Shown here: positions 25,858-42,950 of the stretch, piece after piece | Numbering within the stretch: position 1 is the stretch's first letter | Layout: each line of letters begins with the position of its first letter | DNA from: Candidatus Thorarchaeota archaeon | GTDB taxonomy: Archaea > Asgardarchaeota > Thorarchaeia > Thorarchaeales > Thorarchaeaceae | Assembly: GCA_048884965.1 (NCBI GenBank) | Contig: JBHLQH010000020.1 | Span: 1-63,717, forward strand | Direction: 5' to 3' | Length of the DNA: 63,717 bases | Notes under the pieces: generated by a model | Databases searched by the model: none | What the model was told of the DNA's origin: nothing | Seen by the model: the letters and a program-made list of their open reading frames with translations, nothing else | Made by a program: the position numbers and the translations under genes

Positions 25858-26517
25858 CTACAATGAAGCTTTCAATGCTCTGCTCGCAAGAAACCAGCTA
25901 ATGTCACCTAGCATCTCATGCGGCAGATAGAATATCGAGTTCTTATCAAATAACATCCGAACGCTTGCAGGGAACTCTTCGTCCGCCTCCTCGAAGACTA
26001 CTAGCACTCTGACCATGGGGAGAAATGCAACTTCAAACGCAGCATCTCCGTAATCTGCTCTCTTTGCTCCAAGCTGTTCGAAGGCAGCGAATAGCTTCTC
26101 TCGTTTCTCCATGAATGCTGAGAGAAGTGCGTTTAGGTTCTCTTCATCAAATGAATATCTGCATGCCCAGGAGCCTCTAAGCGTATTGAATTTCACCCAC
26201 TCATTTCCTATCCCTTCATCCTTTGCTTTGCTATAGTAGAATAGGTGTGGGACGATTCGGCTTGGAGCTGTCTTTGTATTCGAGATGGTATCGATGGTTT
26301 CCCCTGTGCTAAGATCCATCTGTATTCCAAAGATATCGATATGATCATTGCCTACTCCTAATCTATTCCTGAGACTTTGGATATCCTCTTGAAAATTCTG
26401 CCAACTCCACATCTCTGAGCTAGTATCAAACTGCTCTATGTTGTATTTGTGAGCCAGCTCTCGAGCAAGGCTCATCCAATATTCTAGAATATCATCCGGC
26501 ATTGCAAATCGGTACAA
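25858..26517 (-). CDS. DUF3786 domain protein
   Basis: EWVKFNTL.G, GDAAF...LP.V...EADEEFPASVRMLFD. Confidence 0.8.
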   Translation of the reverse strand: MYRFAMPDDILEYWMSLARELAHKYNIEQFDTSSEMWSWQNFQEDIQSLRNRLGVGNDHIDIFGIQMDLSTGETIDTISNTKTAPSRIVPHLFYYSKAKDEGIGNEWVKFNTLRGSWACRYSFDEENLNALLSAFMEKREKLFAAFEQLGAKRADYGDAAFEVAFLPMVRVLVVFEEADEEFPASVRMLFDKNSIFYLPHEMLGDISWFLASRALKASL

Positions 26518-26557: not shown

Positions 26558-27352
26558 CTAATCGTTCTTTTCTGGAGCGGATCTACAATCCTCAATGCCA
26601 GTCGCTTCGCAAACTGCATATCGTGCTTGATACCCTGCAATGTGCAGCAGTGCATCGCCCACCTCTCTGTCCTTTGCCATTGATGCCGTACAGGGGTAGG
26701 TGTGGTGAGCTTTTGAAATCAACTCGAATAGCTCATCAGTGTCCGAAATAGACTTCCCGCGAATTCTTTGACTCACATACCACGTACAGCCACATGGTGC
26801 AGAACGCTTTGGTCCTATCTCCGAGATCACATCTTTATTCATATCCACATAGTGGATTGGTCGTCCCACCTTGTACTTTGTTATGAACTCATCAATTAGC
26901 TTACCTTCTCCTAGTTCCAAGGTACAGAAGGGTTTTGGAAATGCCGATTCAATGCCAATATTATCTAGGGTTTCCTTGACTTGAGCCCGTAGCCCTGGGG
27001 GAATCCATGTAGGGTCTTCAATGGGAGCTAAGACCGCCTTTGCACCTGTTTCTTTAACAATTAGATCGATTGATGCCAGAATGTCATGATGGATGGCTAC
27101 GACCAGCAACAGGTCACATTCCATGAGTCCAATCTCTTTGATGTACTTCTCAGGGTCCTCAATCATCGTTGGCGCAGGAGGGTCCACTGGATGGATTCCG
27201 ACGATATCTCCTACGTAGGAGCCATATCCTGCTCTGCATTCTGAACAACTTGGCTCGCATCCCTGACAGAAAGTGCGGAAGTTGATCAGGTTTCCAATCA
27301 CACGTTCTGCGAAGACATCTCCGTATATCGTTGCAATCCTCATCTTTGACAC
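26558..27352 (-). CDS. DUF166 family protein
   Basis: FPKPFCTL, RSAPCGCTW, HHTYPCTASM, LHIAG. Confidence 0.75.
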   Translation of the reverse strand: MSKMRIATIYGDVFAERVIGNLINFRTFCQGCEPSCSECRAGYGSYVGDIVGIHPVDPPAPTMIEDPEKYIKEIGLMECDLLLVVAIHHDILASIDLIVKETGAKAVLAPIEDPTWIPPGLRAQVKETLDNIGIESAFPKPFCTLELGEGKLIDEFITKYKVGRPIHYVDMNKDVISEIGPKRSAPCGCTWYVSQRIRGKSISDTDELFELISKAHHTYPCTASMAKDREVGDALLHIAGYQARYAVCEATGIEDCRSAPEKND

Positions 27353-27473: not shown

Positions 27474-27872
27474 ATGGCACTAGGTGATCTCCTCTTTCCG
27501 AACATAGAGATGAAGCTCGTGATATCCCATGCCTTCCATGCGGATGTGGAATCTGTCAAGGACAAGTTGTCGGAAGAGTACAAAGATGCAGCTGCACAGG
27601 TCCAACTCAGCAAAGCTGACATGCAAAAATTAGGTCTTAAGCCAGATTCGACTGTAAGCATCCAATCGAAAACTGGCAATGTTGTTGTCCATGCCATTTT
27701 AAGCGAGAAAGGCAAGAATGGAATAGCAGTTATGACTCGTGGTCCATGGGCATTAGCGCTTGTAGCTACACCTCGCGATGGGAATCCGCCACAATATCAT
27801 GGAATCCCTGTGACGATCACGCGTAGTTCTGAGAAAGTCACTCCTCTTCTTGATCTTCTTCAGGATTCTTGA
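27474..27872 (+). CDS. fwdD: FwdD/FmdD-like molybdopterin-dinucleotide-binding subunit (degenerate)
   Basis: EEY.DAAA....S..DM..LGL....V...S..G.VVV...GPWA...G.P.Y.GIPV; lacks the N-terminal TGR motif. Confidence 0.75.
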   Translation: MALGDLLFPNIEMKLVISHAFHADVESVKDKLSEEYKDAAAQVQLSKADMQKLGLKPDSTVSIQSKTGNVVVHAILSEKGKNGIAVMTRGPWALALVATPRDGNPPQYHGIPVTITRSSEKVTPLLDLLQDS

Positions 27873-29199
27873 TTGCTTTGATAACCCGATCGACTCTCCC
27901 CCGCTCGATCTGTAGATGATATTTAGGCTTCTTTTTGAGGAGTTCTCTTAGGTTCTGTGCCGCCTTCATTGCAGCTTCTCTTTCTCCATCTATGGAATCC
28001 CATGCAATATCCTGTTTGATTCTCACAGGCTCTTTCATTGTCATATCAATGACGATATCCCGTTCGAATAACCCGCTAGGTGGTGGTGTTTTCCCTACCA
28101 CGGCATCAAAGATCTGTGTTCGTTTCTTCTCCCATTTCCTAGCTCGCTCTAGTTCTTCGACATTATACCCTTCTCTCTTTACTTCCAATACATCATATGG
28201 ACAAGAGATCTCACAAGCACCGCAGTAGATACAATGGTCGAGAATCTCTATCTTTTCAGCAGTTCCTGTGGGGTAGATTGCTTTCACAGGGCAGATATTG
28301 AAGCAATTGTTGCATCCGGTCGGATCACACTTGTCTAGTTGCTTGATGATGACCTCGCCTGAGAAGGGCTTGCTTACTTCAAGGGCATCGTAGGGACAAA
28401 CTTGCGCACATAACCCGCACTTGACGCAGAGGTAGTCATCACGCTTGAGCTTCCCTGATATCTGAGGTTGTTTTATCGTCCGAGGTCCTGATTCCATGCA
28501 ATGCACAGTTATTGCCTCATCAGGGCAAATATCTCCACACAAACCGCAGTAGTCACAGTGATCCTCATTCACTCTGATTCCTACGGCTGGGCGAAAGTTT
28601 GGTGGTTCTGCAGATTCGGACCAATAGATGGTGATTGCTTCAGGACATAGGAGTTCACAGAGACCACAGTAGGAGCATTTCTCTTCATCAATCTGAATCG
28701 TCCCTTTTGCGTACTCTTCACCCTGATAGATGACTAAGGTTTCCTTTCTATCAACATTGACCTCGACCTCAAGGGCATTGGTCGGGCATACCTTGGCACA
28801 AAGCACACAGGGTGCGCACTTCATCTCATCGATGTAGTGAGTACCTTCAATCCGCTGATACTTGTTGATGGCTCCTTCGCCTTCGTATGTTGCTTCAAAG
28901 GCTCTGAACACACAAGCAGAATCACACAAACCACAGAAGGTGCAGAGATCAGGGTCCACATTCACAAGAGGTGCCCCTTCGATTAGCCCGGAAGCGGTTT
29001 CCTTCACCGGTCCCATAGTGATAGCATCCCATGGGCATACCTGACAGATACCACAACCAACGCATTTAGCTATTTCATGATCGAGAGTCTTCTTGAGTAG
29101 AGAAGTACTCCAAGTGAACCTTATCTTTCCCTCTTCAACATCCATCGAGATAACCGGCTTCTCTCCTACCGAGACTCGGTATTTATCCGCCCTATCCAC
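27838..29199 (-). CDS. fwdF: Polyferredoxin FwdF (8 x 4Fe-4S motifs)
   Basis: Eight CxxCxxC-type ferredoxin motifs, including the FwdF-typical CDPTGCNNC and KPFSGE; fwd gene context. Confidence 0.8.
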   Translation of the reverse strand: MDRADKYRVSVGEKPVISMDVEEGKIRFTWSTSLLKKTLDHEIAKCVGCGICQVCPWDAITMGPVKETASGLIEGAPLVNVDPDLCTFCGLCDSACVFRAFEATYEGEGAINKYQRIEGTHYIDEMKCAPCVLCAKVCPTNALEVEVNVDRKETLVIYQGEEYAKGTIQIDEEKCSYCGLCELLCPEAITIYWSESAEPPNFRPAVGIRVNEDHCDYCGLCGDICPDEAITVHCMESGPRTIKQPQISGKLKRDDYLCVKCGLCAQVCPYDALEVSKPFSGEVIIKQLDKCDPTGCNNCFNICPVKAIYPTGTAEKIEILDHCIYCGACEISCPYDVLEVKREGYNVEELERARKWEKKRTQIFDAVVGKTPPPSGLFERDIVIDMTMKEPVRIKQDIAWDSIDGEREAAMKAAQNLRELLKKKPKYHLQIERGRVDRVIKAIKNPEEDQEEE

Positions 29200-31642
29200 C
29201 GCCTGCTACCTCTTCTTCTTGTTGTGGACGAGCGGACTTGCTGCGTTTCGTGGACTCACTTCCAAGAGGGCCAATATCTGTGATGGTATTCACGAATTCT
29301 GTTATTTGGTTCGCAAAGTGATCTGCCTCTGACGCAGATGCGCTACCAAAGTAGAGCCTTCTCCCATCGATACCTGCTGCTTCAAGCGCTTCACGCAGAT
29401 GGTCCGTCCTATCCTTTGCATATCTCGCTCCTGACCGATAATGACAGTCCTGAACATAACAGCCCATTACTGCTACGCCATCCGCACCTTCAGCGAACGC
29501 AGTGAGTAAAGTGTCAATATTGAGACGACCCGTACAGGGAACCTGTATGTTGATCACATTTGGTGGATATTTCAGACGTGATGTTCCTGCTCTATCAGCA
29601 GCACTATAGGCACACCAGCGGCACAAGTAACCCACAATAGCTGGCCGCATGGGATTGAAGTGAACTGCAGCCTGGGTGGCACTTTCCAACTGCTCGTTGT
29701 TCAAACATGGTAAGTCAAGTGCTCCAGATGGACATGCTGCAGCACATGCGCCACAACCACGACATGCAGCCACATCGATTGTTGGAGTCTTTCCCTCATT
29801 GAACTTTATGGCATTAGGCGAGCATACTTGCTCACAAATCTTACAGCCCATGCAAAGATCGATATTGAATGATGGCACACAAGCCTCTGAGATGATATGC
29901 CCAACGGAAAGTAGTGTCTTGACCTTGGAGGCTGCAAGACCTGCGTGTGCGACCGTATCAGCAATATCCTTAGGGCCTTGAGACACCCCTGCTAGAAACA
30001 CTCCTTTCGAATGAGTGCTACTCGGACCTAGCTTCGGATGCTGTTCCAAAAAGAATCCATTCTCATCAAGTGGAGTCTTAAGTAGTTTTGAGAGTCTGAT
30101 ATTGCTTGGGTCCGGATCCATTCCAACCATAAGCACCACGATGTCTACTTCCATCTCAATCATCCGATGAAGTAGAGTATCTTCGGATCGTAGAATAGTC
30201 GTATTGGTTATTGGATCTCGGATAACCTCTCCAACGGCTCCTCGCACAAATATGGCCTTGAACTCCTTACCAGCCCTAATGTACAGCTCTTCTTGTCCTT
30301 TCCCAAAGGTACGCATATCTGTATAGAACATATAGGCTTCAATGTCTGGTAACTGCTGTTTGAGCTGAATAATTTCCTTGACGGCTTCCGAACAACAGAC
30401 CCTGCTACAATACGGTCTATCGAAACGAATTGACCGGCTTCCTACGCAAGTCACGAATGCCACTCGTTTCGGTGGCTTTCCATCAGATGGCTTGACGACC
30501 CTTCCATTTGTTGGTCCTGCAGGATTGATCAGTCTCTCAAACTCGATTGATGTCATGACGTCGGGATTCTCACCGTAGCCAAACTCCTGCACTATCGTTG
30601 GATTAAATGGTCTGTATCCCGTAGCCACGACGATTGCTCCGACATTGATAATCTCTGTTCTATCTACATCTTCGTATCGTAATGACTTGGGCTCACAAAC
30701 TCCAGCACAGGATTGACAACCAATACAACTGTCTATGTCAATATATGGCGCGATTGGCACAGTATCAATTGAGGGTCGCACCATCGCCCTTCTTTTGCCC
30801 AGGCCCTCGTTGTATTCATCTGCTACATCTACAGGGCAAACCTCTAGACATCTATTACATCCAGTGCATGTTTCAATGTCTACATATCTTGCTCTCTGCT
30901 TAACCGTGACCTTGTATTGTCCGACAGTACCCCTTACCTCCTTTACTTCGGCAAGTGTCATTATAGTGATATTGTCATGTCGCGAAGCGCGAGCCATCAT
31001 TGGTCCAAGTATGCATATGCTACAGTCAAATGTGGGGAAGAGCTTGTCCCACTTTGCCATATGACCACCAAGGAAGCCCTCTCGCTCTACTATGACAGTT
31101 TCTATTCCCGAATCTGCCAATTCCAATGCTGCAGATAATCCTGCTACACCACCGCCAATGACCAAAGCCCGTTGAGAGATGGGAACTCTATGCGTTGGAA
31201 TTGGTTCGGAACCTTGGACCTTTGCGATTCCTGTATCGATAATAGCTGCAGCTTTCTTTGTTGCCGTTTCAGGATCATCATAATGCACCCAACTGCAGTG
31301 TTCGCGAATATTCGCCATATGTAAATGACCTGGGTCCAGTCCTGCTTCCTTGATCGCATCTGAGAACAACTCATTATGAAGCAAGGGGGAGCATCCTGCA
31401 ATGACTACCTTCTCGATATCGCTTTTCTTGATTTTCTCAATGAGATCGTAGACTCCCTGCTCTGAACAAAGATGGTCATCGACTTCAACAAGAGGTATTC
31501 CATCTTTCTCATACTTCTCCCTGAGGGATTCGACGTCTATGACGTCCGCGATGTTCGTTCCGCATCGACACAGAAAGACACCTATGTTGTCTCTTTGCTT
31601 GTCCTTGTCGTTTGAGGTTTTTTTTGGGCTCAGGGGGACCAC
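29192..31642 (-). CDS. hdrA: Heterodisulfide reductase subunit A fused to C-terminal MvhD
   Basis: GVFLCRCGTNI, AGCSP, ANIREHCSW, VIGGGVAG FAD motif, CVGSR, CSRVCC, GPKDI; C-terminal CRWCAYSAAD, VPCTGR, DCHY (MvhD). Confidence 0.95.
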   Translation of the reverse strand: MVPLSPKKTSNDKDKQRDNIGVFLCRCGTNIADVIDVESLREKYEKDGIPLVEVDDHLCSEQGVYDLIEKIKKSDIEKVVIAGCSPLLHNELFSDAIKEAGLDPGHLHMANIREHCSWVHYDDPETATKKAAAIIDTGIAKVQGSEPIPTHRVPISQRALVIGGGVAGLSAALELADSGIETVIVEREGFLGGHMAKWDKLFPTFDCSICILGPMMARASRHDNITIMTLAEVKEVRGTVGQYKVTVKQRARYVDIETCTGCNRCLEVCPVDVADEYNEGLGKRRAMVRPSIDTVPIAPYIDIDSCIGCQSCAGVCEPKSLRYEDVDRTEIINVGAIVVATGYRPFNPTIVQEFGYGENPDVMTSIEFERLINPAGPTNGRVVKPSDGKPPKRVAFVTCVGSRSIRFDRPYCSRVCCSEAVKEIIQLKQQLPDIEAYMFYTDMRTFGKGQEELYIRAGKEFKAIFVRGAVGEVIRDPITNTTILRSEDTLLHRMIEMEVDIVVLMVGMDPDPSNIRLSKLLKTPLDENGFFLEQHPKLGPSSTHSKGVFLAGVSQGPKDIADTVAHAGLAASKVKTLLSVGHIISEACVPSFNIDLCMGCKICEQVCSPNAIKFNEGKTPTIDVAACRGCGACAAACPSGALDLPCLNNEQLESATQAAVHFNPMRPAIVGYLCRWCAYSAADRAGTSRLKYPPNVINIQVPCTGRLNIDTLLTAFAEGADGVAVMGCYVQDCHYRSGARYAKDRTDHLREALEAAGIDGRRLYFGSASASEADHFANQITEFVNTITDIGPLGSESTKRSKSARPQQEEEVAGGG

Positions 31643-31823
31643 CTTGTCATGATGAATTGACTATTTTGAACCTGTGACCATTTCATTTATCGAGTATAAA
31701 CATAAGCATTAGGGATTCACGGATACATTATGCAACTACCGCATGATTCATGTATAATCTTTTGATACCAAACGACAGCTTTCCCAAAGCATCCCAGATA
31801 GCCGAAATAATGGAGTCGAATAC

Positions 31824-32282
31824 GTGAAACTCAATCCAATGGAGCTGTACAACCTCCTTCCAAAGACGAACTGCAGGCTATGTGAACCAAAGACATGCAT
31901 GGCATTTGCCACAAAGATGGCGTTAGGGGATTTCCTACCAGACGACTGTCCCCCTCTTCTTGAAGCAGGCTTTGAGTCAAATCTCAAGAAGCTAAGGGAA
32001 CTTGTAGCTCCAATGCAATCTGCCGCTGAAACTGGGATAAAACTTGATGAATCCAAATGTACTGGATGTAGTAATTGCGTTGTCGTTTGCCCTGTCGACG
32101 TTGCAGCCGAACCTCCTACAGCTGAGGGGAAGGCTGCACAAAAGGGCACCACAGTTTTCTGGGTTGAGAATGGAATCTCGAAGATCATCAACTTGGAGAA
32201 GTGCAGACGATTCCCTCCAGACCGATTGAATTGCAGAGTCTGTGAGCAATACTGTTGTACTGATGCAATAGAGATTTGGTAG
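31824..32282 (+). CDS. fwdG: FwdG-like Fe-S protein (N-terminal FeS domain plus 2 x 4Fe-4S)
   Basis: LPKTNCRLC..TCMAFA..CPPL followed by CTGCSNCVVVCP and CRVCEQYC; directly upstream of fwdB. Confidence 0.75.
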   Translation: MKLNPMELYNLLPKTNCRLCEPKTCMAFATKMALGDFLPDDCPPLLEAGFESNLKKLRELVAPMQSAAETGIKLDESKCTGCSNCVVVCPVDVAAEPPTAEGKAAQKGTTVFWVENGISKIINLEKCRRFPPDRLNCRVCEQYCCTDAIEIW

Positions 32283-32287
32283 GTGGT

Positions 32288-33583
32288 ATGATGAAGGATA
32301 TCGTCTGTTCTGGATGTTCTCTCTTGTGCGATGATGTCGCAGCTGAGAATAATGATGGATTGATTAGGTCTCTTGGATTATGTAGATTGGGACATGCACA
32401 TCTGGAATCAGCACTAGCCCATCTCGATGGACAATCAATAGTACGAGAGGGAGGTACTGAAAGAGCTGTTACTCTTGATGAAGCACTTGGTTTGGCCGCT
32501 GATATTCTTTTAGAAGACGGGACTCCTCTTCTCTACGGATGGTCCCATACCTCCAACGAGGTCATCCGCGAAGGATTAGCTTTGGCAATGGATGTCAATG
32601 GCTATTTCGACTCGATTGCGAATTTGGGAGCGGCACAGGCACTCCGTCATGGCATCCATTCTTTGAAACTAGATACTGATTTGGAATATATCAGGAATCA
32701 TGGGGAACTCATCATATATTGGGGCTCTGATCCTAGCGAGAGCCTTCATCGGCATCCAAGTAGATTTGCTGTTCTTCCCCGGGGTGAGAAGATTCCTGAA
32801 GGTATTGAAAGTAGAACAATTGCTGTTGTCGATGTCCGTCAAACAGAAACCATGAAGATGGCCAACCATCGTCTCATAATTCCGATTGGCAGCGATGCCA
32901 AGCTATTGGAGGCAATCACGGCAGAGATTAGCGGTGAATCATCTATTAGTGGTGACATTCTGGGTATTCCTGCGGCAGAGGTGATAGGCTTTTCTCGCGG
33001 TTTCCAAAAATCCGACTGCTCTGTGATCTTCTATGGGAGTGGTCTTCTCCATTCCGGGAAATATCAGGAGAATCTTGATGCACTAAGCAAACTCATCCAT
33101 GCCATACGATCGACCGGCAAGGAAGCTTATGCGCTACCTATGTTCCCAGAAACTAATACCATGGGCGTCATTGAGGACGTCGTCGCATCAACATCTGCGC
33201 CATGCTCAGTAGATTACTCATCTGGTACTGGCGTGCACAAGTCTGATGAAACTGCGCTCGTGAAGCTAGCTCGAGGTGATTTCTCCAGTTCCCTCATCGT
33301 TGCTGATGACGTTCTGACCATGATACCTGGGCCTGCGGCAAAAGCACTTGCAGGGACAAAGATGGTATATATTGGTCCCTCTGGAACGATCAGTGACAAG
33401 ATGGCATCCTTGTCAATACATACCGCAGAGCAGGTGTTAGAAGAAGGCTTGGAGATGTCAAGAATCGATGGTGTCCATGTAACGCTAAGTGGTCTCAGCA
33501 TACCTGAAGAGGATCGTCAAGGTATTCTTCAAATCATTTCCAAACTACGTAAAATCATACAAGAACGAGGTACAGGCAAATGA
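32288..33583 (+). CDS. fwdB: FwdB/FmdB-like subunit lacking the canonical metal-ligating Cys (FhcB-like)
   Basis: CSGCSLLCDD...CRLG cluster, PLLYGWS, IIYWGSDP...HRH.SRF, VVDVR.TET, YGSGL; no CHG motif. Confidence 0.8.
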   Translation: MMKDIVCSGCSLLCDDVAAENNDGLIRSLGLCRLGHAHLESALAHLDGQSIVREGGTERAVTLDEALGLAADILLEDGTPLLYGWSHTSNEVIREGLALAMDVNGYFDSIANLGAAQALRHGIHSLKLDTDLEYIRNHGELIIYWGSDPSESLHRHPSRFAVLPRGEKIPEGIESRTIAVVDVRQTETMKMANHRLIIPIGSDAKLLEAITAEISGESSISGDILGIPAAEVIGFSRGFQKSDCSVIFYGSGLLHSGKYQENLDALSKLIHAIRSTGKEAYALPMFPETNTMGVIEDVVASTSAPCSVDYSSGTGVHKSDETALVKLARGDFSSSLIVADDVLTMIPGPAAKALAGTKMVYIGPSGTISDKMASLSIHTAEQVLEEGLEMSRIDGVHVTLSGLSIPEEDRQGILQIISKLRKIIQERGTGK

Positions 33584-34377
33584 AAGTCGCAGTGGCAGGA
33601 AAAGGAGGAGTGGGGAAGACTACAGTCGCTGGAACCCTTGCAAGATTTCTTGGTCGGGATGGTCTCAAAATCCTTGCAGTGGATGCAGACCCAAGCTATA
33701 CTCTCTGGTCAGCTATCGGAATTCCTCGTGATATAGCTGATACTATCGTCCCGCTGACAGAGAATGAGGAGCTGGTTGAGGAACGATTGCAGATAAAGGA
33801 AGTTGGACCGACATCCACTGGAGTTTTCAAGCTCAATCCCCGTGTTGATGATCTTGCAGCAAAGTTCGCTATCTCTGGACCGGATAATGTACATCTCCTA
33901 GTCGCAGGGACTGTTGATTTGGGAGGATCTGGATGTATGTGTCCTTCTGCAACACTGCTAAAGTCCTTGATGCGCCACCTAGTGATTGGAACAGATGAGG
34001 CTTTTGTGATGGATATGGATGCTGGGGTCGAGAACCTTGGACGTGGGACCACTCGTGGCATGGACGCCCTCATAGTCGTCGCAGAACCTGGCAGGAGGTC
34101 TCTCGATATCATGAAGAAGATCAAGCAGCTTGCAGCTGACATCGGTGTCGGATTGGTGTTTGCTGTAGGGAACAAGGTCGCGACTCCTGAGGATGAAGAG
34201 ATGATTCGTGAGAGTGTTGCTGCCGTCGGTATACCGCTTCTCGGAATCGTCCCACTCGACGACTTTATCCGGGAGGCCGATAGGAAAGGTGTGGCACCAA
34301 TCGACTTGAATGACAAGTCCCCAGGAATGCTTGCAATCAAGGACATCAAGGACCAACTAGTTGAGAAGACCTCTTGA
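33580..34377 (+). CDS. cooC: CooC/AcsF-type nickel-insertion ATPase
   Basis: GKGGVGKTT, DADP, GCMCP, DMDAGVENLGRG. Confidence 0.9.
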   Translation: MKVAVAGKGGVGKTTVAGTLARFLGRDGLKILAVDADPSYTLWSAIGIPRDIADTIVPLTENEELVEERLQIKEVGPTSTGVFKLNPRVDDLAAKFAISGPDNVHLLVAGTVDLGGSGCMCPSATLLKSLMRHLVIGTDEAFVMDMDAGVENLGRGTTRGMDALIVVAEPGRRSLDIMKKIKQLAADIGVGLVFAVGNKVATPEDEEMIRESVAAVGIPLLGIVPLDDFIREADRKGVAPIDLNDKSPGMLAIKDIKDQLVEKTS

Positions 34378-34438
34378 TGTGCTCATCGATTTGGCTTAGT
34401 TTCATACCAAAAGCATACCAGAAGCTAAAACCGTTTTC

Positions 34439-34451
34439 GGAAACGTACAAA
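34439..34451. promoter_or_regulatory. Conserved intergenic motif GGAAACGTACAAA (copy 2), next to an AT-rich TATA-like box upstream of cdhA
   Basis: Identical to 25759-25771; followed by aatatat. Confidence 0.45.
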
Positions 34452-34526
34452 AATATATCGGTTAACGATTGAAATCGAACATGTATTTTTGGTTCCGCGT
34501 CGGATTCATAACCTTGATATGCTCGA

Positions 34527-36914
34527 ATGGTGCAAGGCAAAAGCACTACGAACACAGGAACTGAGCGAGCTATGAAGAAGAAAGCTTACATCAAAGCCGA
34601 TGAAGCCAAAACCGGAATGGGCGTCTTCAAAGGGCTTGAGGTTCGCATTGGACAGATTGTTGATGATGAATGGGATGAACCCATGGGTCCAACACCGATG
34701 CCGGGTCCTACAACCCTACGCTCCTGGGATCACAAGCTTCTGACGAAATACCAACCATCATACATGCCCTATTGTCAGGTATGTTGCCTTTGCACAATGG
34801 GGAAGTGTGACCTCTCTGGAGATAAGAGAGGTGCCTGTGGGCTTGATCTGAAAGGTCAACAAGGACGTATCGTCCTAGCGGCAGCCAATATTGGCTGTGC
34901 AGCGCACCTTGCCCACTCAAGGCATATGGTTGATCACCTTATTGAGGAGTACGGACCTCGTACCAAACTTATCCAAGGTCCAGGAACCGAGATACATGCA
35001 CCTGTTTCGCGTTTGGTAACAGGGATGCGCCCTCGCACTTTGGAGGACGCAAGCATCATTCTCGATTACTGCGAGTCCCAACTCACGCATACCCTATCTG
35101 CCACAGCTACAGGCCAAGAAGGAAATTGGATGGACTTTGAAAGCAAGGTCTTCCATACTGGAATGATTGATCAGCTCTCCATGGAGATAGCTGATTTGGC
35201 ACAGATTTCCACTCTTGACCTGCCACAGGCTGACCCCGATGCCCCACTTGTCGAATCAGGTATTGGTATGATGGACATGAACAAGGCTATCATTCTGACT
35301 ATCGGACACAACATCGTACCAGCGGCCTCAATTACAGATTATATCACTGAAAAGCGATTGAATGATCAGGTTGAGGTAGGGGGAATGTGTTGTACCGCAT
35401 GGGATATCACTCGGAGAGATCCAAAGGCAAAGGTCATTGGCCCAATCTCTTGGCAACTCCGGTACATCCGTAGTGGAAAGGCCGATGTGGTTGTTGTGGA
35501 TGAACAGTGTGTCAATACCAATGTCGTGAATGAAGCACGGAAAGTTGGAGCCCCAGTCATCTCTACTAGCGATAAAGCTGTGATGGGATTGCCAGATAGA
35601 TCTGACGATCCTGTTGACCGTATCGCAGAAGAATTGATCTCAGGGAAGATTCCTGGTGTCTACTTTCCAGATCATCGCAGAGTCGGTGAGTTAGCTACCA
35701 AAGTAGCTCTTGCAGTAAAACCTGCTCGAAGGAAGAAGAAGTACTTCCCGAGCAAGAAGCAGATACAGAAGATGGCTGAGGAATGTAAGAAATGCATGGA
35801 ATGTGTCCGTGCATGCCCGAATGACCAGAACGTGCAAGAAGCAGTATTGGCAGCTCAGACAGGTAATCTTGAGCCTCTTCGTGAGATATATCACAACTGC
35901 ATTGGCTGTGCTCGATGTGAATCCGCTTGTCCGAATGACTATGATCTCCATAGCTGGATGGTCGTAGCGGCTGAGAAGGATTGCGAAAATGAAACTCACA
36001 TCGTTCGAACTGGCCGAGGTGCGATTCAGGATACTGAAATTCGAAGGGTTGGGCAACCAATCGTCTTTGGTGAGATTCCTGGAGTCATAGCACATGTTGG
36101 TTGTGCCAACTACCCGGGTGGAGGTCAGGATGTTCACGATATGGCTGAGGAATTTGCCAAACGCAGGTTCATTATAGTCACATCCGGTTGCGCAGCTATC
36201 TCGGCAGGGACCGTCAAAGATGAGAACGGTCAATCGATCTATGAACGAAGAAGTGGTGAGTTCGATGCAGGATGCGTGGTCAATGTTGGGTCATGTGTAT
36301 CAAACTCTCACATTGCGGGTGCTGCTATTAAGATCGCAGCTATCTTTGCAAAGAGGAATCTTCGAGGAAATTACGCAGAAATTGCAGACTATATCCATCA
36401 CCGTGTAGGTGCGGTTGGAATCTCGTGGGGAGCAATGTCCCAGAAGGCAGCGTCCATCGCTGCAGGTTTCTGGAGACTCGGTGTTCCTGTGATTGTAGGT
36501 CCACATGGTTCCAAGTACCGCAGAATGCTGCTCGGAAGAGCAGACCATGAACGGGACTGGGAGGTCTACGATGCACGAACTGGAGAGCGTATGATAACAG
36601 CTCCCGGGCCGGAGCATCTGTTCTATGCGGCAGAAACTGTTGCTGAGGCGAATGTCCTTACAGCAAAGCTCTGTATACGACCAAACGATACTGGAAAGGG
36701 ACGGTCAATCAAGTTGAGTCACTATGTCGACATCCATGAGAAGCACTATGGTTTCTTCCCAGAGGATGTCTGGAGGTATATCAGACGTGATACCGACATC
36801 CCTATCACGCTCAAAGACAAGATACTCGCTCAGATGAAGGAGAACAAGTGGAAGGAACGACCGATTCCTGATCCCACCCTGCTCAAGGAGCAGATCATCG
36901 GAGGTGGTGACTAA
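34527..36914 (+). CDS. cdhA: CO dehydrogenase/acetyl-CoA synthase subunit alpha
   Basis: MGPTPMP, CCLCTMGKC, GMCCT, DEQC, two extra ferredoxin motifs, GSCVSN, GAMSQKA. Confidence 0.97.
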   Translation: MVQGKSTTNTGTERAMKKKAYIKADEAKTGMGVFKGLEVRIGQIVDDEWDEPMGPTPMPGPTTLRSWDHKLLTKYQPSYMPYCQVCCLCTMGKCDLSGDKRGACGLDLKGQQGRIVLAAANIGCAAHLAHSRHMVDHLIEEYGPRTKLIQGPGTEIHAPVSRLVTGMRPRTLEDASIILDYCESQLTHTLSATATGQEGNWMDFESKVFHTGMIDQLSMEIADLAQISTLDLPQADPDAPLVESGIGMMDMNKAIILTIGHNIVPAASITDYITEKRLNDQVEVGGMCCTAWDITRRDPKAKVIGPISWQLRYIRSGKADVVVVDEQCVNTNVVNEARKVGAPVISTSDKAVMGLPDRSDDPVDRIAEELISGKIPGVYFPDHRRVGELATKVALAVKPARRKKKYFPSKKQIQKMAEECKKCMECVRACPNDQNVQEAVLAAQTGNLEPLREIYHNCIGCARCESACPNDYDLHSWMVVAAEKDCENETHIVRTGRGAIQDTEIRRVGQPIVFGEIPGVIAHVGCANYPGGGQDVHDMAEEFAKRRFIIVTSGCAAISAGTVKDENGQSIYERRSGEFDAGCVVNVGSCVSNSHIAGAAIKIAAIFAKRNLRGNYAEIADYIHHRVGAVGISWGAMSQKAASIAAGFWRLGVPVIVGPHGSKYRRMLLGRADHERDWEVYDARTGERMITAPGPEHLFYAAETVAEANVLTAKLCIRPNDTGKGRSIKLSHYVDIHEKHYGFFPEDVWRYIRRDTDIPITLKDKILAQMKENKWKERPIPDPTLLKEQIIGGGD

Positions 36915-36916
36915 CC

Positions 36917-37462
36917 ATGATGCGTGCAGTACCATGGCAGACTGGTGAGATATGCGGTCCAGATGCCGCAAAGACACTCAACAAAGCTGAACAATTGAAA
37001 CGTGATTGGACTAAAGCTAAGAAGCCCCTCATGATTGTTGGATCCGATGCTGTGAAAGTCAAGTATGGAAAGGGTGACCTGATCGATTATTCTATCGAGC
37101 TATCAAATGCTGGGAAGATTCCCGTCGTCGCAACTGGTGGAGCAATCAAGCACTTCATCGAGCGCGGCTTTGAAGGTGCAAAATCCATGGGCGCTATGGA
37201 GATTGTAGGTTATCTACAAGATCCCGATTGGAAAGGCCCCCATGGAAAAGGGCCGCATGACTTGATTTTCACTCATAGCATGCCATACTATATGGAATGG
37301 ACCCTGCTATCAGGAGTCATGAACTTTGCTAGGCATATCACTCCTATCGCACTGGGTAGGTACTACCAACCCCATGCGACCTGGAGCATGCCCAACTTGA
37401 AAGAGAAAAACTACCAAGAATTGCTCAAAGAGATTCTTGAATTCATAGGAGGAGGTAAGTAA
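36917..37462 (+). CDS. cdhB: CODH/ACS subunit epsilon
   Basis: PWQT, AKKPLMIVG, LQDPDWKG, YYQPHATWS; lies between cdhA and cdhC. Confidence 0.92.
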   Translation: MMRAVPWQTGEICGPDAAKTLNKAEQLKRDWTKAKKPLMIVGSDAVKVKYGKGDLIDYSIELSNAGKIPVVATGGAIKHFIERGFEGAKSMGAMEIVGYLQDPDWKGPHGKGPHDLIFTHSMPYYMEWTLLSGVMNFARHITPIALGRYYQPHATWSMPNLKEKNYQELLKEILEFIGGGK

Positions 37463-37463
37463 A

Positions 37464-38870
37464 ATGTCGTTTGAAGATATTCCCGTCGACATCGGCGTTA
37501 TCTACGAAGGCGAGCGCGTTCGCGGTAAGGATATGTTTGTCGAGCTCGGCGGTCCAAAGATGGAAAAGAAGTTCGAGCTCGCCATCGCCCGTGATATGGG
37601 CGATGTAGAAGATGAAAAGATAACTGTGATCGGTCCAGACCTCAAGGACATGGAACCAGAGAGCTATCATCCTTTGGCTATAGTAATTGAAGTGGCAGGG
37701 AAGGATATAGAGCCTGATCTAGAAGGAGTCATTGAGAGAAGAATCCATGAATACATCAACTTTGTTGAAGGGATGATGCACCTCAACCAACGATACGATA
37801 TCTGGTTGAGGCTTAGCAAGAAATCTTTCGATAAGGGCTTTAACTCATTGGAATATCTGGGTAAGGTATTGATACGACTCTTCAAGAGCGAGATGAATAT
37901 CATCGAGAAGATTCAGGTGACCTTTATCACTGATCCGAAGGTCGTTGAAGAGCGCTATGATGATGCCATAAACAGATACAACGCACGAGATGAGCGCGCA
38001 AGAGGACTGGAAGATACTGAGGTAGATACCTTCTATGGATGCTCCCTGTGTCAGTCCTTTGCACCGACTCATGTCTGTACCATCACTCCTCAGAGATATG
38101 CGAACTGTGGAGCTATCAGTTGGTTCGATGGGCGAGCTGCGGCACGAGTAGACCCCAAAGGTCCTCTCTATGCAATTCCAAAAGGCGATACCATCGATGA
38201 CTTCAAGGGAGAGTATACTGGTGTTAACCAAGCATATACAGAGAAGTCCCTTGGAAAGGTCAACTCTGTAGCACTCTATAGCGCGTTCGAAAAGCCCCAC
38301 ACGAGCTGTGGTTGCTTTGAGGCGATCGCATTCGTCATCCCTGAGGTGGACGGACTTGGTATTGTGCATCGTGACTTTAAGGGTGAGACTGTGAATGGTC
38401 TTCCTTTCTCAAGTATGGCTGACTCGACTGCTGGAGGTCGACAAGTACCTGGATTCCATGGGATATCCATTGAGTATATGCGTTCTCCAAAGTTCCTTCA
38501 GGTCGATGGAGGTTGGGACCGAGTAGTATGGCTACCCGAGTCCATCAAGGAACGTGTGGTTGAGTTCATTCCTGAGGAAGTTCGCGACAAGATTCCCACA
38601 GAAACTAATGCCATGTCGATACCTGACCTCAAGAACTTCTTGAAGTCTAAGAATCATCCAGTGGTTGATAGGTGGGTTGAGCTTGAGGAAGAAGATGACA
38701 TGTCAGTTCCAATGGAACGAGATGCGGATGGAGCCGTCACCGTGCCTGGTGACATGACAGCTTTCGTAGGAGGTGTGGGTGGTGGTCTTGAGATCATCTT
38801 CAAGAATGCCAAGATCTACGCTGAGAAAGTTATCATCCGCCGAACAGGGACGGGTGAAAAGAAGAAATGA
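37464..38870 (+). CDS. cdhC: Acetyl-CoA synthase subunit beta
   Basis: YEGERVR, ELGGPK, CSLCQSFAP, PHTSCGCFE, GGWDRVVW. Confidence 0.97.
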   Translation: MSFEDIPVDIGVIYEGERVRGKDMFVELGGPKMEKKFELAIARDMGDVEDEKITVIGPDLKDMEPESYHPLAIVIEVAGKDIEPDLEGVIERRIHEYINFVEGMMHLNQRYDIWLRLSKKSFDKGFNSLEYLGKVLIRLFKSEMNIIEKIQVTFITDPKVVEERYDDAINRYNARDERARGLEDTEVDTFYGCSLCQSFAPTHVCTITPQRYANCGAISWFDGRAAARVDPKGPLYAIPKGDTIDDFKGEYTGVNQAYTEKSLGKVNSVALYSAFEKPHTSCGCFEAIAFVIPEVDGLGIVHRDFKGETVNGLPFSSMADSTAGGRQVPGFHGISIEYMRSPKFLQVDGGWDRVVWLPESIKERVVEFIPEEVRDKIPTETNAMSIPDLKNFLKSKNHPVVDRWVELEEEDDMSVPMERDADGAVTVPGDMTAFVGGVGGGLEIIFKNAKIYAEKVIIRRTGTGEKKK

Positions 38871-40060
38871 CCGAGCATGACAAAGAGAAACGCTCTTCCT
38901 TGGATGACCTGTTTGGTGACTTCGCTGAGCTCGTATTAGAGAACGTTACCATTGAGCTCGATGAGCTACGATTGAATCTTCGACCTATGATTGCGCAGGC
39001 AGCAGCGCAGGTCGCAAAACCTGCTCTCTCCCTGCCCAAGTCCTTGATTCCAGCCCAGTTCGCACCACCTCTGGGCGAGTACACATCTACAATCCATGAG
39101 ATAACGATTGGAGCTACAAAAGGAGATGGAGGCACAAGAAGTAAATCTGTTACAATTGGAGGCCATAAGGCTCCCGCTTGGGATCTATTCCAATCAGCTC
39201 CAAAGAATCCTCCTGTTGTTGCCGCAGACGTTTTTGACATGAAAATCTCATTGGCAAAGGCTGTCAAGTCCGCATACAAGGAAGTGTTGGAGGACCCTGC
39301 TGAATGGGCGAAGCTCTGTGTGAACAAGTATGGCGCAGATGTCATTACGCTTCATCTGATCAGCACAGATAGGCAGCTTGGAGACACCTCTCCAAATGAT
39401 GCCGCGAAGACGATCGAAGAGGTCCTGCAAGCAGTTAAGGTGCCTATCCTGATTGGCTCGGCTGGAGATCCTGAGAAGGACGGTCCTGTCCTAGCGAAGG
39501 CTGCAGAGGTCTGTGAAGGTGAGAAGACATTGCTATGCTCAGCTACCGTAGATGTCTACGAACCGATTGCAGAAGCAGCAAAGAAACACGACCAAGTCGT
39601 GCTATCTTGGACATCGCTTGACATCAATCAGCAGAAAGAATTGAATCGTCGACTTGTCGACTGGCTACGACCTGATCAAATAGTCATCGATCCCACGACA
39701 GCTGCACTGGGCTATGGTTTGGAATATGCGTTCACTATGATGCAACGTATGCGACTTGCTGGCTTGTTGGGTGATAGCGAACTACAATATCCAATCAGCT
39801 CAGGCACGACCAATGCTTGGGCAGCTCGAGAAGCATGGTTGAATGATGATGCGCTTGGACCGCGAGAGCTCAGAGGCCCCATATGGGAGAGCGTAACTGC
39901 CTTAGCACTTCTCTTGGCTGGGAATGACCTCTTCATGATGATGCATCCTGCAGCTATCAAGACGGTACATGATTTGGTCGATTGGTTGAAAGAACGACAA
40001 TCTGTTAAGAGGGATGATTATCCTGATTGGACCTCAATGTCCATACCGGAGGGAGTCTAA
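38867..40060 (+). CDS. cdhD: Corrinoid Fe-S protein small subunit (delta)
   Basis: IGAT..DGGTR, DPTTAALGYGLEY, NAWAAREAW, MMMHP. Confidence 0.95.
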   Translation: MTEHDKEKRSSLDDLFGDFAELVLENVTIELDELRLNLRPMIAQAAAQVAKPALSLPKSLIPAQFAPPLGEYTSTIHEITIGATKGDGGTRSKSVTIGGHKAPAWDLFQSAPKNPPVVAADVFDMKISLAKAVKSAYKEVLEDPAEWAKLCVNKYGADVITLHLISTDRQLGDTSPNDAAKTIEEVLQAVKVPILIGSAGDPEKDGPVLAKAAEVCEGEKTLLCSATVDVYEPIAEAAKKHDQVVLSWTSLDINQQKELNRRLVDWLRPDQIVIDPTTAALGYGLEYAFTMMQRMRLAGLLGDSELQYPISSGTTNAWAAREAWLNDDALGPRELRGPIWESVTALALLLAGNDLFMMMHPAAIKTVHDLVDWLKERQSVKRDDYPDWTSMSIPEGV

Positions 40061-41475
40061 TGGCAAAACTCGCAGGACCATTAGAAATCTACCCACTTCT
40101 GCCTGGTACGAATTGCAAGGAGTGTGGTGAAGCGAACTGTATGGCCTTTGCCACTAAGATGGCAGAGCACACAGTCAAGCTCAAGGATTGCAACCCTCTC
40201 TACGCTGAACAGAAGTATGCCAAGAAGCGAGTCAAGCTAGAGGAACTTATCAGACCTCCAGTGCGAGAAGTAACAATTGGAATTGGCGAGAAGGCTGTAG
40301 AGGTAGGTGGGAAATTAGTCCTCTACCGACACGATCTGAGATATACTAACCCGACAGCGTTCTTTATCGATGTGCCTGACAATCTTGATGCTGATACCTT
40401 TGCCAAACGCGTGAAGGCTATCGAAGAATGGACTTACATCTATATTGGGCAAAATCTCCGTTTGGATGGAATAGCTCTTCGTGGAGTTTCAAAGGACCCC
40501 CAGACATTCGTGAAAGCAGCAAAGACACTTGCTGGCTTGACCGACTGGCCAATCATGCTCTGTTCTCTAGATCCCAAGATGTTAGGGCCAGCAGCTAATG
40601 CGATAGCCGCAGAGCATCCTTTGCTCTATGCAGCCACTATGGATACATGGGCTGAAGTGGGTGAAATCGCTGCGAAGCATAATCTGCCAGTTGTGGCATA
40701 CGCTCCTGGGAATCTCGAGGACCTTACATCACTAGCTAATACCTTGCAGGCAATGGGTATTCAAGACATCATATTGGATCCAGGTACGGTCTCACGCGCT
40801 GCCCTCGGTACGACTATTGATAACTTCACTCAGCTAAGAAGAGCTGCAACGGTGAAAGACAACGACCTCGTTGGTTATCCCCTGATGTCAACTCCTATCT
40901 CAGTATGGGCTGACTATCGCGACGGCGAGAACCCCGCCTTAACTCAATGGGATGAGGTTCTAGTATCAGCGGCAACCATAGTCAGATACTCTGACATAGT
41001 GGTTATGCACAGTCTGGACATGTGGACGAATCTCCCCTTGACATTCTTGCGAAGCAACATCTACACTGACCCAGTGAAGCCTGTTGCTGTAGAGCCTGGA
41101 TTAATGAAGTTTGGAGATGCTGGACCTGACTCTCCTGCCATGTACACGACCAACTTTGCGCTAACCTATTTCACTGTAGAGAGCGATATCAAGCAAGGCA
41201 ATGTCGATGCTTGGCTGCTCGTTGTTGATACAGAGGGAATGAGCGTTCAGTCAGCTGTAGCTGGCAGGAAGCTTACCGCAGAGAAGGTTGCAGAAGCCAT
41301 TCAGGAGTATGGGCTTGAGGAGAAGGTGAATCATCGAATTCTCATCAGTCCCGGCATGGCAGCTCGTATCAGTGGGGAAACTGAGGAAGCCACAGGCTGG
41401 ACCATAAAGGTCGGCACTCAGGATTCAAGTGGCATTCCCAAGTATCTCCAAGAAGGTAAGTGGAGAGAGGAGTAG
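40060..41475 (+). CDS. cdhE: Corrinoid Fe-S protein large subunit (gamma)
   Basis: LPGTNCKECGEANCMAFA, VLYRHD, IYTDP, TNFALTYFTVESD; ATG overlaps the cdhD stop (TAATG). Confidence 0.96.
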   Translation: MAKLAGPLEIYPLLPGTNCKECGEANCMAFATKMAEHTVKLKDCNPLYAEQKYAKKRVKLEELIRPPVREVTIGIGEKAVEVGGKLVLYRHDLRYTNPTAFFIDVPDNLDADTFAKRVKAIEEWTYIYIGQNLRLDGIALRGVSKDPQTFVKAAKTLAGLTDWPIMLCSLDPKMLGPAANAIAAEHPLLYAATMDTWAEVGEIAAKHNLPVVAYAPGNLEDLTSLANTLQAMGIQDIILDPGTVSRAALGTTIDNFTQLRRAATVKDNDLVGYPLMSTPISVWADYRDGENPALTQWDEVLVSAATIVRYSDIVVMHSLDMWTNLPLTFLRSNIYTDPVKPVAVEPGLMKFGDAGPDSPAMYTTNFALTYFTVESDIKQGNVDAWLLVVDTEGMSVQSAVAGRKLTAEKVAEAIQEYGLEEKVNHRILISPGMAARISGETEEATGWTIKVGTQDSSGIPKYLQEGKWREE

Positions 41476-42134: not shown

Positions 42135-42950
42135 GTGAGTCCAATGCGTGAACGTCTAGTCCTTTCAGTATCCGGCAAGGGCGGTGTAGGTAAGACCACG
42201 ACATCCGCGCTTCTATCAAGAGTCATCGCCGAGAAGACAAAGCGGTCCCTTCTACTGGTAGATGCGGATCCTGTGATGAACTTACCACGAGCACTTGGAG
42301 TAGAGGTTCCTGCATCTGTGGGAGAGATTGCCACAAGAATGCGGAAGAACATTGACGAAGGAATACTGCCTGCTTCGGCAGCCAAACAAGACATACTTGA
42401 AGGTGAGATTTTCGAGTCATTGATCGAAGGTGATAGGTACGACTTTCTGGCAATGGGCCGCACAGAGGGAGAAGGATGCTACTGCTATGTCAATAGATTG
42501 CTCACTCAGATACTTGACCGATTGACTATGAACTATGAGATCACTCTGCTTGACATGAGTGCTGGTCTTGAGCATTTCAGCAGGCGCACAAACAGGAATG
42601 TCGATGTGCTGATCATCGTCATCGATTCCTCACGTGCTGCCTTTGAAGCTGCTCTGCGCATTCGTGATTTGGCAAAGGAGGTCCACATCGATTTCAAGAA
42701 GCTCGTCGTTATTGGAAACAGGATTCCTGACTCTCTTGTGGATGCTGTATCTAAAGGACTTGAGGAGAATGGACTCTCACTTATGGGTATGATACCAAAT
42801 GATGATGAGGTCGCGAAGTTGAATTACCTCGGAAGGCCAGTCTTCGAGCTTTCCAGTAGTTCGCCTGCATTGCAAGCTGTCGAATCCATCGCAGAGAAAC
42901 TTGGACTACTTAGCGAGGTCACACTCCTCAAGCTCTTGGGGCAATCATAG
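42135..42950 (+). CDS. cooC: Second CooC/AcsF-type nickel-insertion ATPase
   Basis: GKGGVGKTT, DADP, EGEGCYCYVN, AGLEHFSR. Confidence 0.9.
   Translation: MSPMRERLVLSVSGKGGVGKTTTSALLSRVIAEKTKRSLLLVDADPVMNLPRALGVEVPASVGEIATRMRKNIDEGILPASAAKQDILEGEIFESLIEGDRYDFLAMGRTEGEGCYCYVNRLLTQILDRLTMNYEITLLDMSAGLEHFSRRTNRNVDVLIIVIDSSRAAFEAALRIRDLAKEVHIDFKKLVVIGNRIPDSLVDAVSKGLEENGLSLMGMIPNDDEVAKLNYLGRPVFELSSSSPALQAVESIAEKLGLLSEVTLLKLLGQS

Follow-up and report, generated by a model that had tools for sequence, protein, structure and literature searches.

The wiring of the heterodisulfide reductase (Hdr) subunit HdrA, through a polyferredoxin, to the formylmethanofuran dehydrogenase subunit FmdB has been structurally established, and groups 3-6 of the FmdF polyferredoxins, which lie beyond Class I methanogens and Methanomicrobiales/Methanocellales, have not been characterised (PMC13580544). 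The HdrA2B2C2 enzyme of M. acetivorans has been characterised as bifurcating and dependent on ferredoxin and F420H2, and it is thought to oxidise ferredoxin reduced by carbon monoxide dehydrogenase/acetyl-CoA synthase (CODH/ACS) during growth on acetate (PMC5296606). Acetate raises hdrA-pfd expression three-fold; fwdG2B2D2 is expressed constitutively and has no known function (PMC2838876). The M. maripaludis cdh operon encodes its own ferredoxin. How the two most reducing steps of the Wood-Ljungdahl pathway are energised in Asgard and other non-methanogenic archaea is an open question that shapes models of syntrophy. The locus described here, from a Candidatus Thorarchaeota archaeon, places HdrA- and formylmethanofuran dehydrogenase (Fwd)-type genes next to the cdh genes of CODH/ACS. 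It lies in a stretch of 63,717 nucleotides (the window; contig JBHLQH010000020.1 of assembly GCA_048884965.1, contig C20 of the host genome G000, which has 4.09 Mb and is 95.7% complete) and is called the island below.

In this region, an ancient redox module of five genes is present in its Thorarchaeota form and joined to a cdh operon. The core of the module consists of HdrA2, a polyferredoxin, an FeS/FwdG fusion, FwdB2 and FwdD2. A sequence-only reading of the window had presented it as a candidate new system; this label overstates the case, because the region belongs, as its Thorarchaeota branch, to a wider family of Hdr-linked FwdGBD modules; fwdG2B2D2 and the 'Fwd-Hdr' cluster are further members. 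No description of the ligand-less Thorarchaeota paralogs was found in the literature.

Catalytic residues and constraint in the FwdB-like and FwdD-like proteins

The FwdB-like protein falls below the cut-off of model TIGR03129 (Table 1), with which the canonical FwdB of the same genome scores 541.6 bits. Its [4Fe-4S] cysteines C11, C14, C18 and C36 are invariant and align to those of M. wolfeii FwdB (5T5I_B), and the CR(L)GH stretch following the fourth cysteine is kept. At the positions of 5T5I_B, however, Cys118 is replaced by Gly, His119 by Ala and Arg288 by Phe, whereas the canonical FwdB of the host reads SSVCHG and PMRGHYN at the ligand and Arg motifs. Position 118 is Gly in 91% of 35 Thorarchaeota orthologs; across the copies it is either Gly or Ala, and no other ligand is conserved. 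The decay extends beyond the active site. An alignment of 21 canonical FwdB sequences has 91 columns with a conservation of at least 85%; 40 of these are kept in Thorarchaeota and 60-62 in the Cys-bearing FwdB2 groups. More than 20 additional canonical positions have been lost in Thorarchaeota only. In 70% of the Thorarchaeota copies, a deletion has removed the loop of ~20 aa that followed the former Arg motif. A metal ligand at a shifted position is not apparent from the alignment, as the protein has only six cysteines, of which four belong to the FeS cluster and C310 lies in a variable insert. The remaining candidate, C248, is Thorarchaeota-specific; its counterpart in 5T5I_B is a core Phe, and one subclade has Phe there as well, which makes a ligand role improbable. 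Selenocysteine was also rejected, because an in-frame TGA is absent at the ligand position.

The FwdD-like protein matches FwdD chains of the PDB (E 3e-12). In Thorarchaeota only, its TGR motif has changed to SHA, the following Gln to Asp, GPWAN to GPWAL and a Lys to His. These TGR, Q, N and K residues of domain IV are presumably cofactor contacts, as is generally the case in the MopB family. Thus both pterin-site subunits are degenerate, as the sequence-only reading had noticed. Judged from the alignments, all residues required at the W/Mo-pterin site for CO2/formate chemistry are gone, and this catalysis has been lost from the FwdB-like/FwdD-like pair. The W/Mo-pterin cofactor itself is likely to have been lost too, because the motifs have decayed in both proteins.

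The loss of catalysis was not accompanied by pseudogenisation, and purifying selection acts on both genes. The reading frames of both genes are intact in ~40 genomes. Pairwise dN/dS (the ratio of nonsynonymous to synonymous substitution rates) is 0.04-0.15 for the FwdB-like gene and 0.05-0.12 for the FwdD-like gene; most neighbouring genes have 0.02-0.06, and CdhB reaches ~0.1. In these comparisons dS is often saturated, and a value of 0.14 comes from the least saturated pair. Between the same genomes, FwdB-like identity is 52-63% compared with 70-83% for canonical FwdB, which corresponds to a divergence ~1.6-2.2 times as large. Together with the low dN/dS, this indicates a constraint that is relaxed but still strong. 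In the FwdB-like alignment, 122 columns are at least 90% conserved, and 53 conserved columns are Thorarchaeota-specific. The AlphaFold2 model (pLDDT 85.9) has the three-domain MopB/FwdB fold, with template-modelling (TM) scores of 0.86-0.87 and root-mean-square deviations of 3.0-3.3 Å to 8RJA_B, 5T5I_B and 7BKB_H, but a TM score of only 0.66 to FhcB. The model also matches the cofactor-less MopB domains of complex I, Stn and Nfn-ABC.

In databases, the FwdB-like genes, whose relatives come almost all from Thorarchaeota metagenome-assembled genomes (MAGs), are annotated as 'formylmethanofuran dehydrogenase subunit B' (JGI) or 'hypothetical' (NCBI). Metabolic reconstructions that count this catalytically dead protein as Fwd are therefore wrong.

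Fe-S and flavin partner proteins

The HdrA-MvhD fusion covers positions 2-777 of the 777-position HdrA2 model and contains an FAD site, four CxxCxxCxxxC motifs and the MvhD domain. The polyferredoxin overlapping it has eight four-Cys motifs, as had been counted before, but its assignment as FwdF is only partly accurate: it is an eight-cluster polyferredoxin, scoring below the FwdF/FmdF cut-off, that belongs to a group of tailed, HdrA2-associated proteins. The tail of ~100 aa (residues 350-453, window 27838-28150 on the minus strand) is Cys-free, partly helical and C-terminal. It is common to all HdrA2-linked polyferredoxins from Thorarchaeota to Methanosarcina, including Methanosarcina pfd, and is a candidate docking element.

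Similarly, the gene read as fwdG encodes more than FwdG alone. Residues 71-150 are FwdG-like, forming an 80-aa 2x[4Fe-4S] ferredoxin that matches the FwdG chains 5T5I_G and 9SFI_U (E 1e-6 to 2e-7), inserted hairpin included. They are fused to an N-terminal PF04060 [4Fe-4S] domain of the CdhE/AcsC/RnfB type, for which the N-terminus of NF003195 (CdhE) is the best match (residues 1-71); RnfB also matches. The 13 cysteines of the fusion are sufficient for three clusters, and it is 79-90% identical across Thorarchaeota.

Canonical Fwd and possible Hdr partners elsewhere in the genome

A canonical fwdD-fwdB-fwdA operon is present on contig C2 (51270-54671), and fwdC lies beside mch on contig C25. 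Since this canonical set is complete, the FwdB-like and FwdD-like proteins of the island are paralogs. The earlier statement that fwdA, fwdC, HdrB-type and MvhA-type genes are missing was borne out over the whole island contig, on which fwdA, fwdC, CCG-domain and PF00374 matches were not found; MvhG and HdrC were not searched separately. Elsewhere, the genome encodes ~20 HdrB-like CCG-domain proteins, several [NiFe] hydrogenases and further HdrA paralogs. One of these, at C16:14772-20731, has an MvhD-like fusion at its C-terminus and 38% identity over residues 8-783; its neighbours are an HdrB-like gene with a CCG domain and a further HdrA, and it is a possible source of HdrBC partners. F420H2 was considered as a donor for HdrA2: no match to CofH was found in the genome, and two FrhB-like genes are present.

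MoaC, MoeA_N and the MoaA C-terminal domain gave no match in the host genome. Of the 32 genomes of the class with an intact canonical FwdB and a completeness of at least 90%, 19 also lack MoaC, so that the absence of these genes is uninformative about the FwdB-like protein.

Distribution and phylogeny

A single gene order, which runs from DUF3786 through CdhE and continues to CooC2 and the hydrolase, is shared by ~35 Thorarchaeota loci, and synteny is conserved across the class and beyond. The five-gene core lies beside cdh in Korarchaeia/Thermoproteota and Bathyarchaeia (L050, L052, L055). In Baldrarchaeia (L057) a single operon reads FeSG-FwdB2-HdrA2-polyFd-x-HdrC-HdrB-CooC-CdhAB, and only there are hdrCB adjacent. 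The core is also found in one Nitrososphaerota MAG. The FeSG-FwdB-FwdD trio (fwdG2B2D2) is present in Methanosarcinales and Methanothrix, near hdrA2-pfd in the case of L063 and L087. In a maximum-likelihood tree all these paralogs fall on one FwdB2 side (support 99), with Thorarchaeota nested in the HdrA2-linked clade (support 100), the other members of which keep Cys-His. The nested position indicates that ligand loss is derived.

The Cys has been lost separately in Helarchaeota (L086, 7818-11164) and in a Bathyarchaeota cluster (P0129). The Cys-less Helarchaeota copy follows a FwdC-like GXGXG gene, which may mean an Fhc-like arrangement. In Jordarchaeum (L060, 7463-11299), a fwdD-fwdA-FeS/FwdG-fwdB operon encodes a FwdB that keeps Cys-His and has Ala at Arg288. 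This weakens the loss of Arg288 as proof of inactivity in Cys-bearing relatives; by this comparison of sequences Arg288 may not be indispensable, and the long FeS/FwdG fusion also serves what appear to be genuine Fwd enzymes.

Among 87 genomes of the class Thorarchaeia, the FwdB-like protein is present in 41 (with two further partial copies, truncated in G058 and as a contig-end fragment in G068), the tailed polyferredoxin in 45, CdhA in 46 and canonical FwdB in 66, many of them without cdh. CdhA is of the ACS type in 44 of the 46; G065 has a cdhAB-only copy and G009 a distinct fragment with 52% identity. The FwdB-like protein, tailed polyferredoxin and CdhA occur in the same five genera, with mismatches at contig ends or in incomplete bins. 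In the genomes that are at least 90% complete, the FwdB-like protein, polyferredoxin and ACS-type CdhA are found together in 19, and none of them in 22-23. The module never occurs in the class without the full cdh cluster, whereas canonical fwd and mch do.

Second cdhA-cdhB loci that lack both ACS subunits and the module were found on G067:C94 (L096) and G065:C21 (L097), with a CdhA 85% identical; the L096 pair lies among HdrA-like genes. In the single-contig assembly of G058, where cdh was not found, one half of hdrA2 stands with FeSG and FwdB-like residues 1-188 (L098, C1:1572000-1591999) and the other with polyferredoxin, FwdD-like and DUF3786 genes (L100, C1:1434000-1452000). The idea that the module decays after cdh loss in this genome was withdrawn, because the two hdrA2 halves, 140 kb apart, are well kept. 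The split probably arose as an artefact of scaffolding or through a very recent rearrangement.

Comparison with known systems

The Hdr-Fmd/Fwd supercomplexes of methanogens (M. hungatei, 7BKB; M. marburgensis) likewise contain HdrA(-MvhD), an FmdF-type eight-cluster polyferredoxin, FwdG and FwdB/D, with an N-terminal [4Fe-4S] cluster on FwdB and the same predicted order of electron carriers. Unlike them, the island has no FwdA/FwdC, its FwdB-like protein lacks Cys118, His119 and Arg288, its FwdG bears the extra CdhE-type FeS domain and its polyferredoxin has the C-terminal tail. Moreover, the island module is linked to cdh, and the methanogen complexes to methanogenesis.

In Methanosarcina, hdrA2 (MA2868)-pfd (MA2867) and fwdG2B2D2 encode the orthologous fusion, tailed polyferredoxin, FeS/FwdG, FwdB2 and FwdD2, again without A and C subunits. 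The divergent arrangement is also seen in Methanosarcina sp. L063. However, the Methanosarcina module is not adjacent to cdh, and Methanosarcinales FwdB2 keeps the Cys that Thorarchaeota lack, with His changed to Gln, Leu or Phe and Arg to Val. Compared with the HdrA2B2C2 heterodisulfide reductase, the cognate HdrB/HdrC are absent beside the island hdrA2, as no CCG-domain gene is on the contig. The 'Fwd-Hdr' cluster of Ca. Methanonezhaarchaeia YNP3N, like the island, has a second FwdBD with FwdF, FwdG and Hdr, separate from canonical FwdABCD, and has been proposed as a formate-oxidising input (10.1101/2025.06.25.661132). The Thorarchaeota proteins cannot act in this way, because the ligand and the catalytic residues are gone.

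FhcB of the Methylorubrum formyltransferase/hydrolase complex (6S6Y) is a FwdB homolog that also lacks Cys118, His119 and Arg288 and has a scaffold role. This dead FwdB has lost the FeS domain and the D subunit (PMC6926001), has no Fe-S partners and works with FhcA, FhcC and FhcD. In contrast, the island keeps the FeS domain and the D subunit and has no A, C or Ftr genes nearby. The MopB domains without cofactor in NuoG/Nqo3, StnABC and Nfn-ABC (7Z7R, 8OH5, 9BOV) offer a parallel as Fe-S-bearing structural parts of electron-transfer or bifurcating complexes, but they belong to larger subunits and are only distant relatives, with 12-16% identity.

Discussion

Progressive and repeated loss of catalytic residues, together with the invariant cluster of FwdB, the three Fe-S and flavin partners and the link to cdh, would fit a module under selection for electron transfer and assembly rather than for catalysis at the metal. 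We give about even chances to the reading in which the module joins HdrA2 to CODH/ACS as a bifurcation-linked electron relay or scaffold. The sequence-only interpretation, which offered a scaffold wiring HdrA to CdhA as one option, is partly supported. HdrA2 would act as a flavin-based bifurcating or confurcating enzyme, as suggested by the Methanosarcina homolog, which exchanges electrons with CODH/ACS-reduced ferredoxin. It would pass or receive low-potential electrons through the eight-cluster polyferredoxin and the three-cluster FeS/FwdG protein. The dead FwdB/FwdD pair may then serve as a one-cluster relay and docking core, resembling the cofactor-less MopB parts of NuoG, Stn and Nfn-ABC. 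The chain could supply the CO2/CO step of CODH/ACS, at about -520 mV, or the re-reduction of corrinoid Co(II), the latter being suggested by the CdhE-type FeS domain of the FeS/FwdG protein.

A more specific form of this proposal is possible but tentative, and we would not rate it as probable. Thorarchaeota, and with the Cys-bearing form other archaea of the acetyl-CoA pathway, may hard-wire HdrA2 bifurcation directly to CODH/ACS through a 12-cluster chain built on a dead Fwd core. Such a chain would provide private electrons at ~-500 mV for reduction of CO2 to CO and/or reactivation of corrinoid Co(II) to Co(I), independent of ATP (activation of the RACo/RamA type) and of free ferredoxin.

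Several observations weigh against the relay and its role in CODH/ACS. The evidence for electron delivery to CdhA or CdhE consists of gene linkage and co-inheritance, and adjacent genes can be co-lost by single deletions, which makes co-inheritance a weak proof of dependence. No hdrBC genes adjoin hdrA2 in Thorarchaeota. Residues 156-195 of the FwdB-like protein, its most conserved stretch with 16 of the 53 Thorarchaeota-specific columns, are modelled with low confidence, although this would be expected of a segment that becomes ordered on a partner. In addition, the gap of 149 bp between cooC and cdhA holds a TATA-like element, so the cdh genes may be transcribed separately. This possible internal promoter, like the Methanosarcinales trio and the Bathyarchaeia loci L054 and L056, where the module lies away from cdh, would fit a general Hdr-type bifurcating unit that feeds the ferredoxin pool or another Wood-Ljungdahl step, with cdh adjacency reflecting co-regulation. 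We consider this unlikely, though deserving of attention, because adjacency to cdh recurs in four phyla, in divergent, co-operonic and cooC-overlapping arrangements, and because within Thorarchaeia the module, unlike canonical fwd and mch, is confined to genomes with the full cdh cluster.

The relay is also questioned by the features pointing to a retained cofactor. The MopB Rossmann-type motifs of the FwdB-like protein (D186/R188, D207, G254/G256, N294/G297, D345, R396/D398) are invariant, and the D subunit is retained with a PF01568 score above the cut-off. With the CR(L)GH stretch, the [4Fe-4S] cluster, the Thorarchaeota-specific conserved columns and the strong constraint, they would be compatible with a pair that still binds bis-pterin W/Mo without a protein ligand, as in arsenite oxidase, and acts on a substrate other than CO2 or formate as the low-potential catalytic end of the HdrA2 chain. 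This is a rather poor prospect in view of the Gly or Ala at position 118 with no conserved alternative, the further positions lost from both proteins in Thorarchaeota and the separate Cys losses in Helarchaeota and a Bathyarchaeota lineage, which point to dispensable catalysis. The genome gave no match to MoaA, MoaC and MoeA, which also stands against it but is equally a problem for canonical FwdB. The earlier suggestion of a pairing with a formate-using Fhc-like FwdA/C encoded elsewhere has a precedent in the dead scaffold FhcB (PMC6926001) and an echo in the FwdC-like gene beside the Cys-less Helarchaeota copy. Nevertheless, replacement of FwdB/FwdD in such an Fhc-like complex, releasing or using free formate, is very improbable: fwdA belongs to the canonical fwdDBA operon with an intact FwdB, the island keeps the FeS domain and D subunit that FhcB lost, plus 12 further clusters, and the dead paralog follows cdh, not fwdA/fwdB, in its phyletic pattern. 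Finally, the FwdB-like and FwdD-like genes are the fastest-evolving of the island (43-67% identity), as functionless, decaying remnants would be, but this is scarcely conceivable and is refuted by the selection analysis, given the intact frames, the low dN/dS and the many conserved columns.

As a relay or scaffold, the conserved Hdr-linked Fe-S chain in the cdh island is a concrete candidate for the electron supply of the two most reducing Wood-Ljungdahl steps. The island would then be a case in which a CO2-reducing module has been turned into wiring, intermediate between Hdr-Fmd supercomplexes, which are active, and FhcB, which is fully dead.

Gene organisation and neighbouring genes

The positions and gene list previously given for 27474-41475 proved correct in the open reading frame listing and the Pfam and NCBIfam scans, as did the divergence of the fwdG-like and fwdB-like genes from hdrA2 and their run via cooC to cdhABCDE (Table 1). 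Three junctions overlap, namely hdrA2/polyferredoxin by 8 nt, FwdB-like/cooC in an ATGA and FwdD-like/polyferredoxin by 35 nt, tail to tail.

Table 1. Features of the island and its neighbours, in window positions.
Feature	Position	Strand	Evidence and remarks
DUF3786 protein	25858..26517	-	PF12654 E 2e-26; left-hand neighbour, same position in most Thorarchaeota loci
DUF166 protein	26558..27352	-	PF02593 E 5.7e-49; 11 Cys, CxxCxxxCxxC motif
FwdD-like (MopB domain IV) paralog	27474..27872	+	PF01568 40.3 bits (cut-off 26.8); NF042908 (FwdD) 52.5 bits (cut-off 175)
HdrA2-associated polyferredoxin (FwdF-like)	27838..29199	-	NF042909 (FwdF/FmdF) 226 bits (cut-off 375); 8 [4Fe-4S] motifs, 33 Cys
HdrA-MvhD fusion, HdrA2 type	29192..31642	-	NF040770 905.6 bits (cut-off 1100); PF02662 E 1e-42
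Divergent intergenic region, 181 bp	31643..31823	.	two TATA-like elements read from sequence; candidate promoters only
Three-cluster Fe-S protein (FeS/FwdG fusion)	31824..32282	+	PF04060 E 6e-10; NF003195 E 3.7e-16
FwdB-like paralog, likely start 32291	32276..33583	+	TIGR03129 248.5 bits (cut-off 327.8); alignment to 5T5I_B
CooC-type Ni-insertion ATPase	33580..34377	+	PF01656, P-loop, CxC motif (GCMCP); start overlaps FwdB-like stop codon
CdhA, CODH alpha subunit	34527..36914	+	PF03063 E 2.9e-57
CdhB, epsilon subunit	36917..37462	+	PF02552
CdhC, ACS beta subunit	37464..38870	+	PF03598, PF19436
CdhD, delta subunit	38867..40060	+	PF03599
CdhE, gamma subunit, corrinoid Fe-S protein large subunit	40027..41475	+	PF03599, PF04060
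CooC2, second CooC paralog	42135..42950	+	GCYCY motif; kept downstream in Thorarchaeota loci
Acetyl-CoA hydrolase/transferase + GNAT fusion	43110..44996	+	PF13336, PF02550, PF00583; 72-82% identical in 7 loci

The archaeal CODH/ACS set is complete, with CdhABCDE all matched by Pfam and two CooC paralogs that carry the CxC motif; a small ORF on the minus strand separates cdhE from cooC2. To the left, the DUF166 protein is likely a CODH/ACS accessory factor. Its gene, with the CxxCxxxCxxC motif, adjoins the island, and the M. maripaludis homolog, which shows co-fitness with CODH/ACS and the deletion of which abolishes autotrophy (preprint 10.1101/2024.03.05.583561), is genetically needed for CODH/ACS-dependent autotrophy. 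PDB relatives of the DUF166 and DUF3786 proteins were not found. On the right, the acetyl-CoA hydrolase/transferase-GNAT gene forms the end of the island in several Thorarchaeota, and a 72%-identical paralog of it is present on contig C29.

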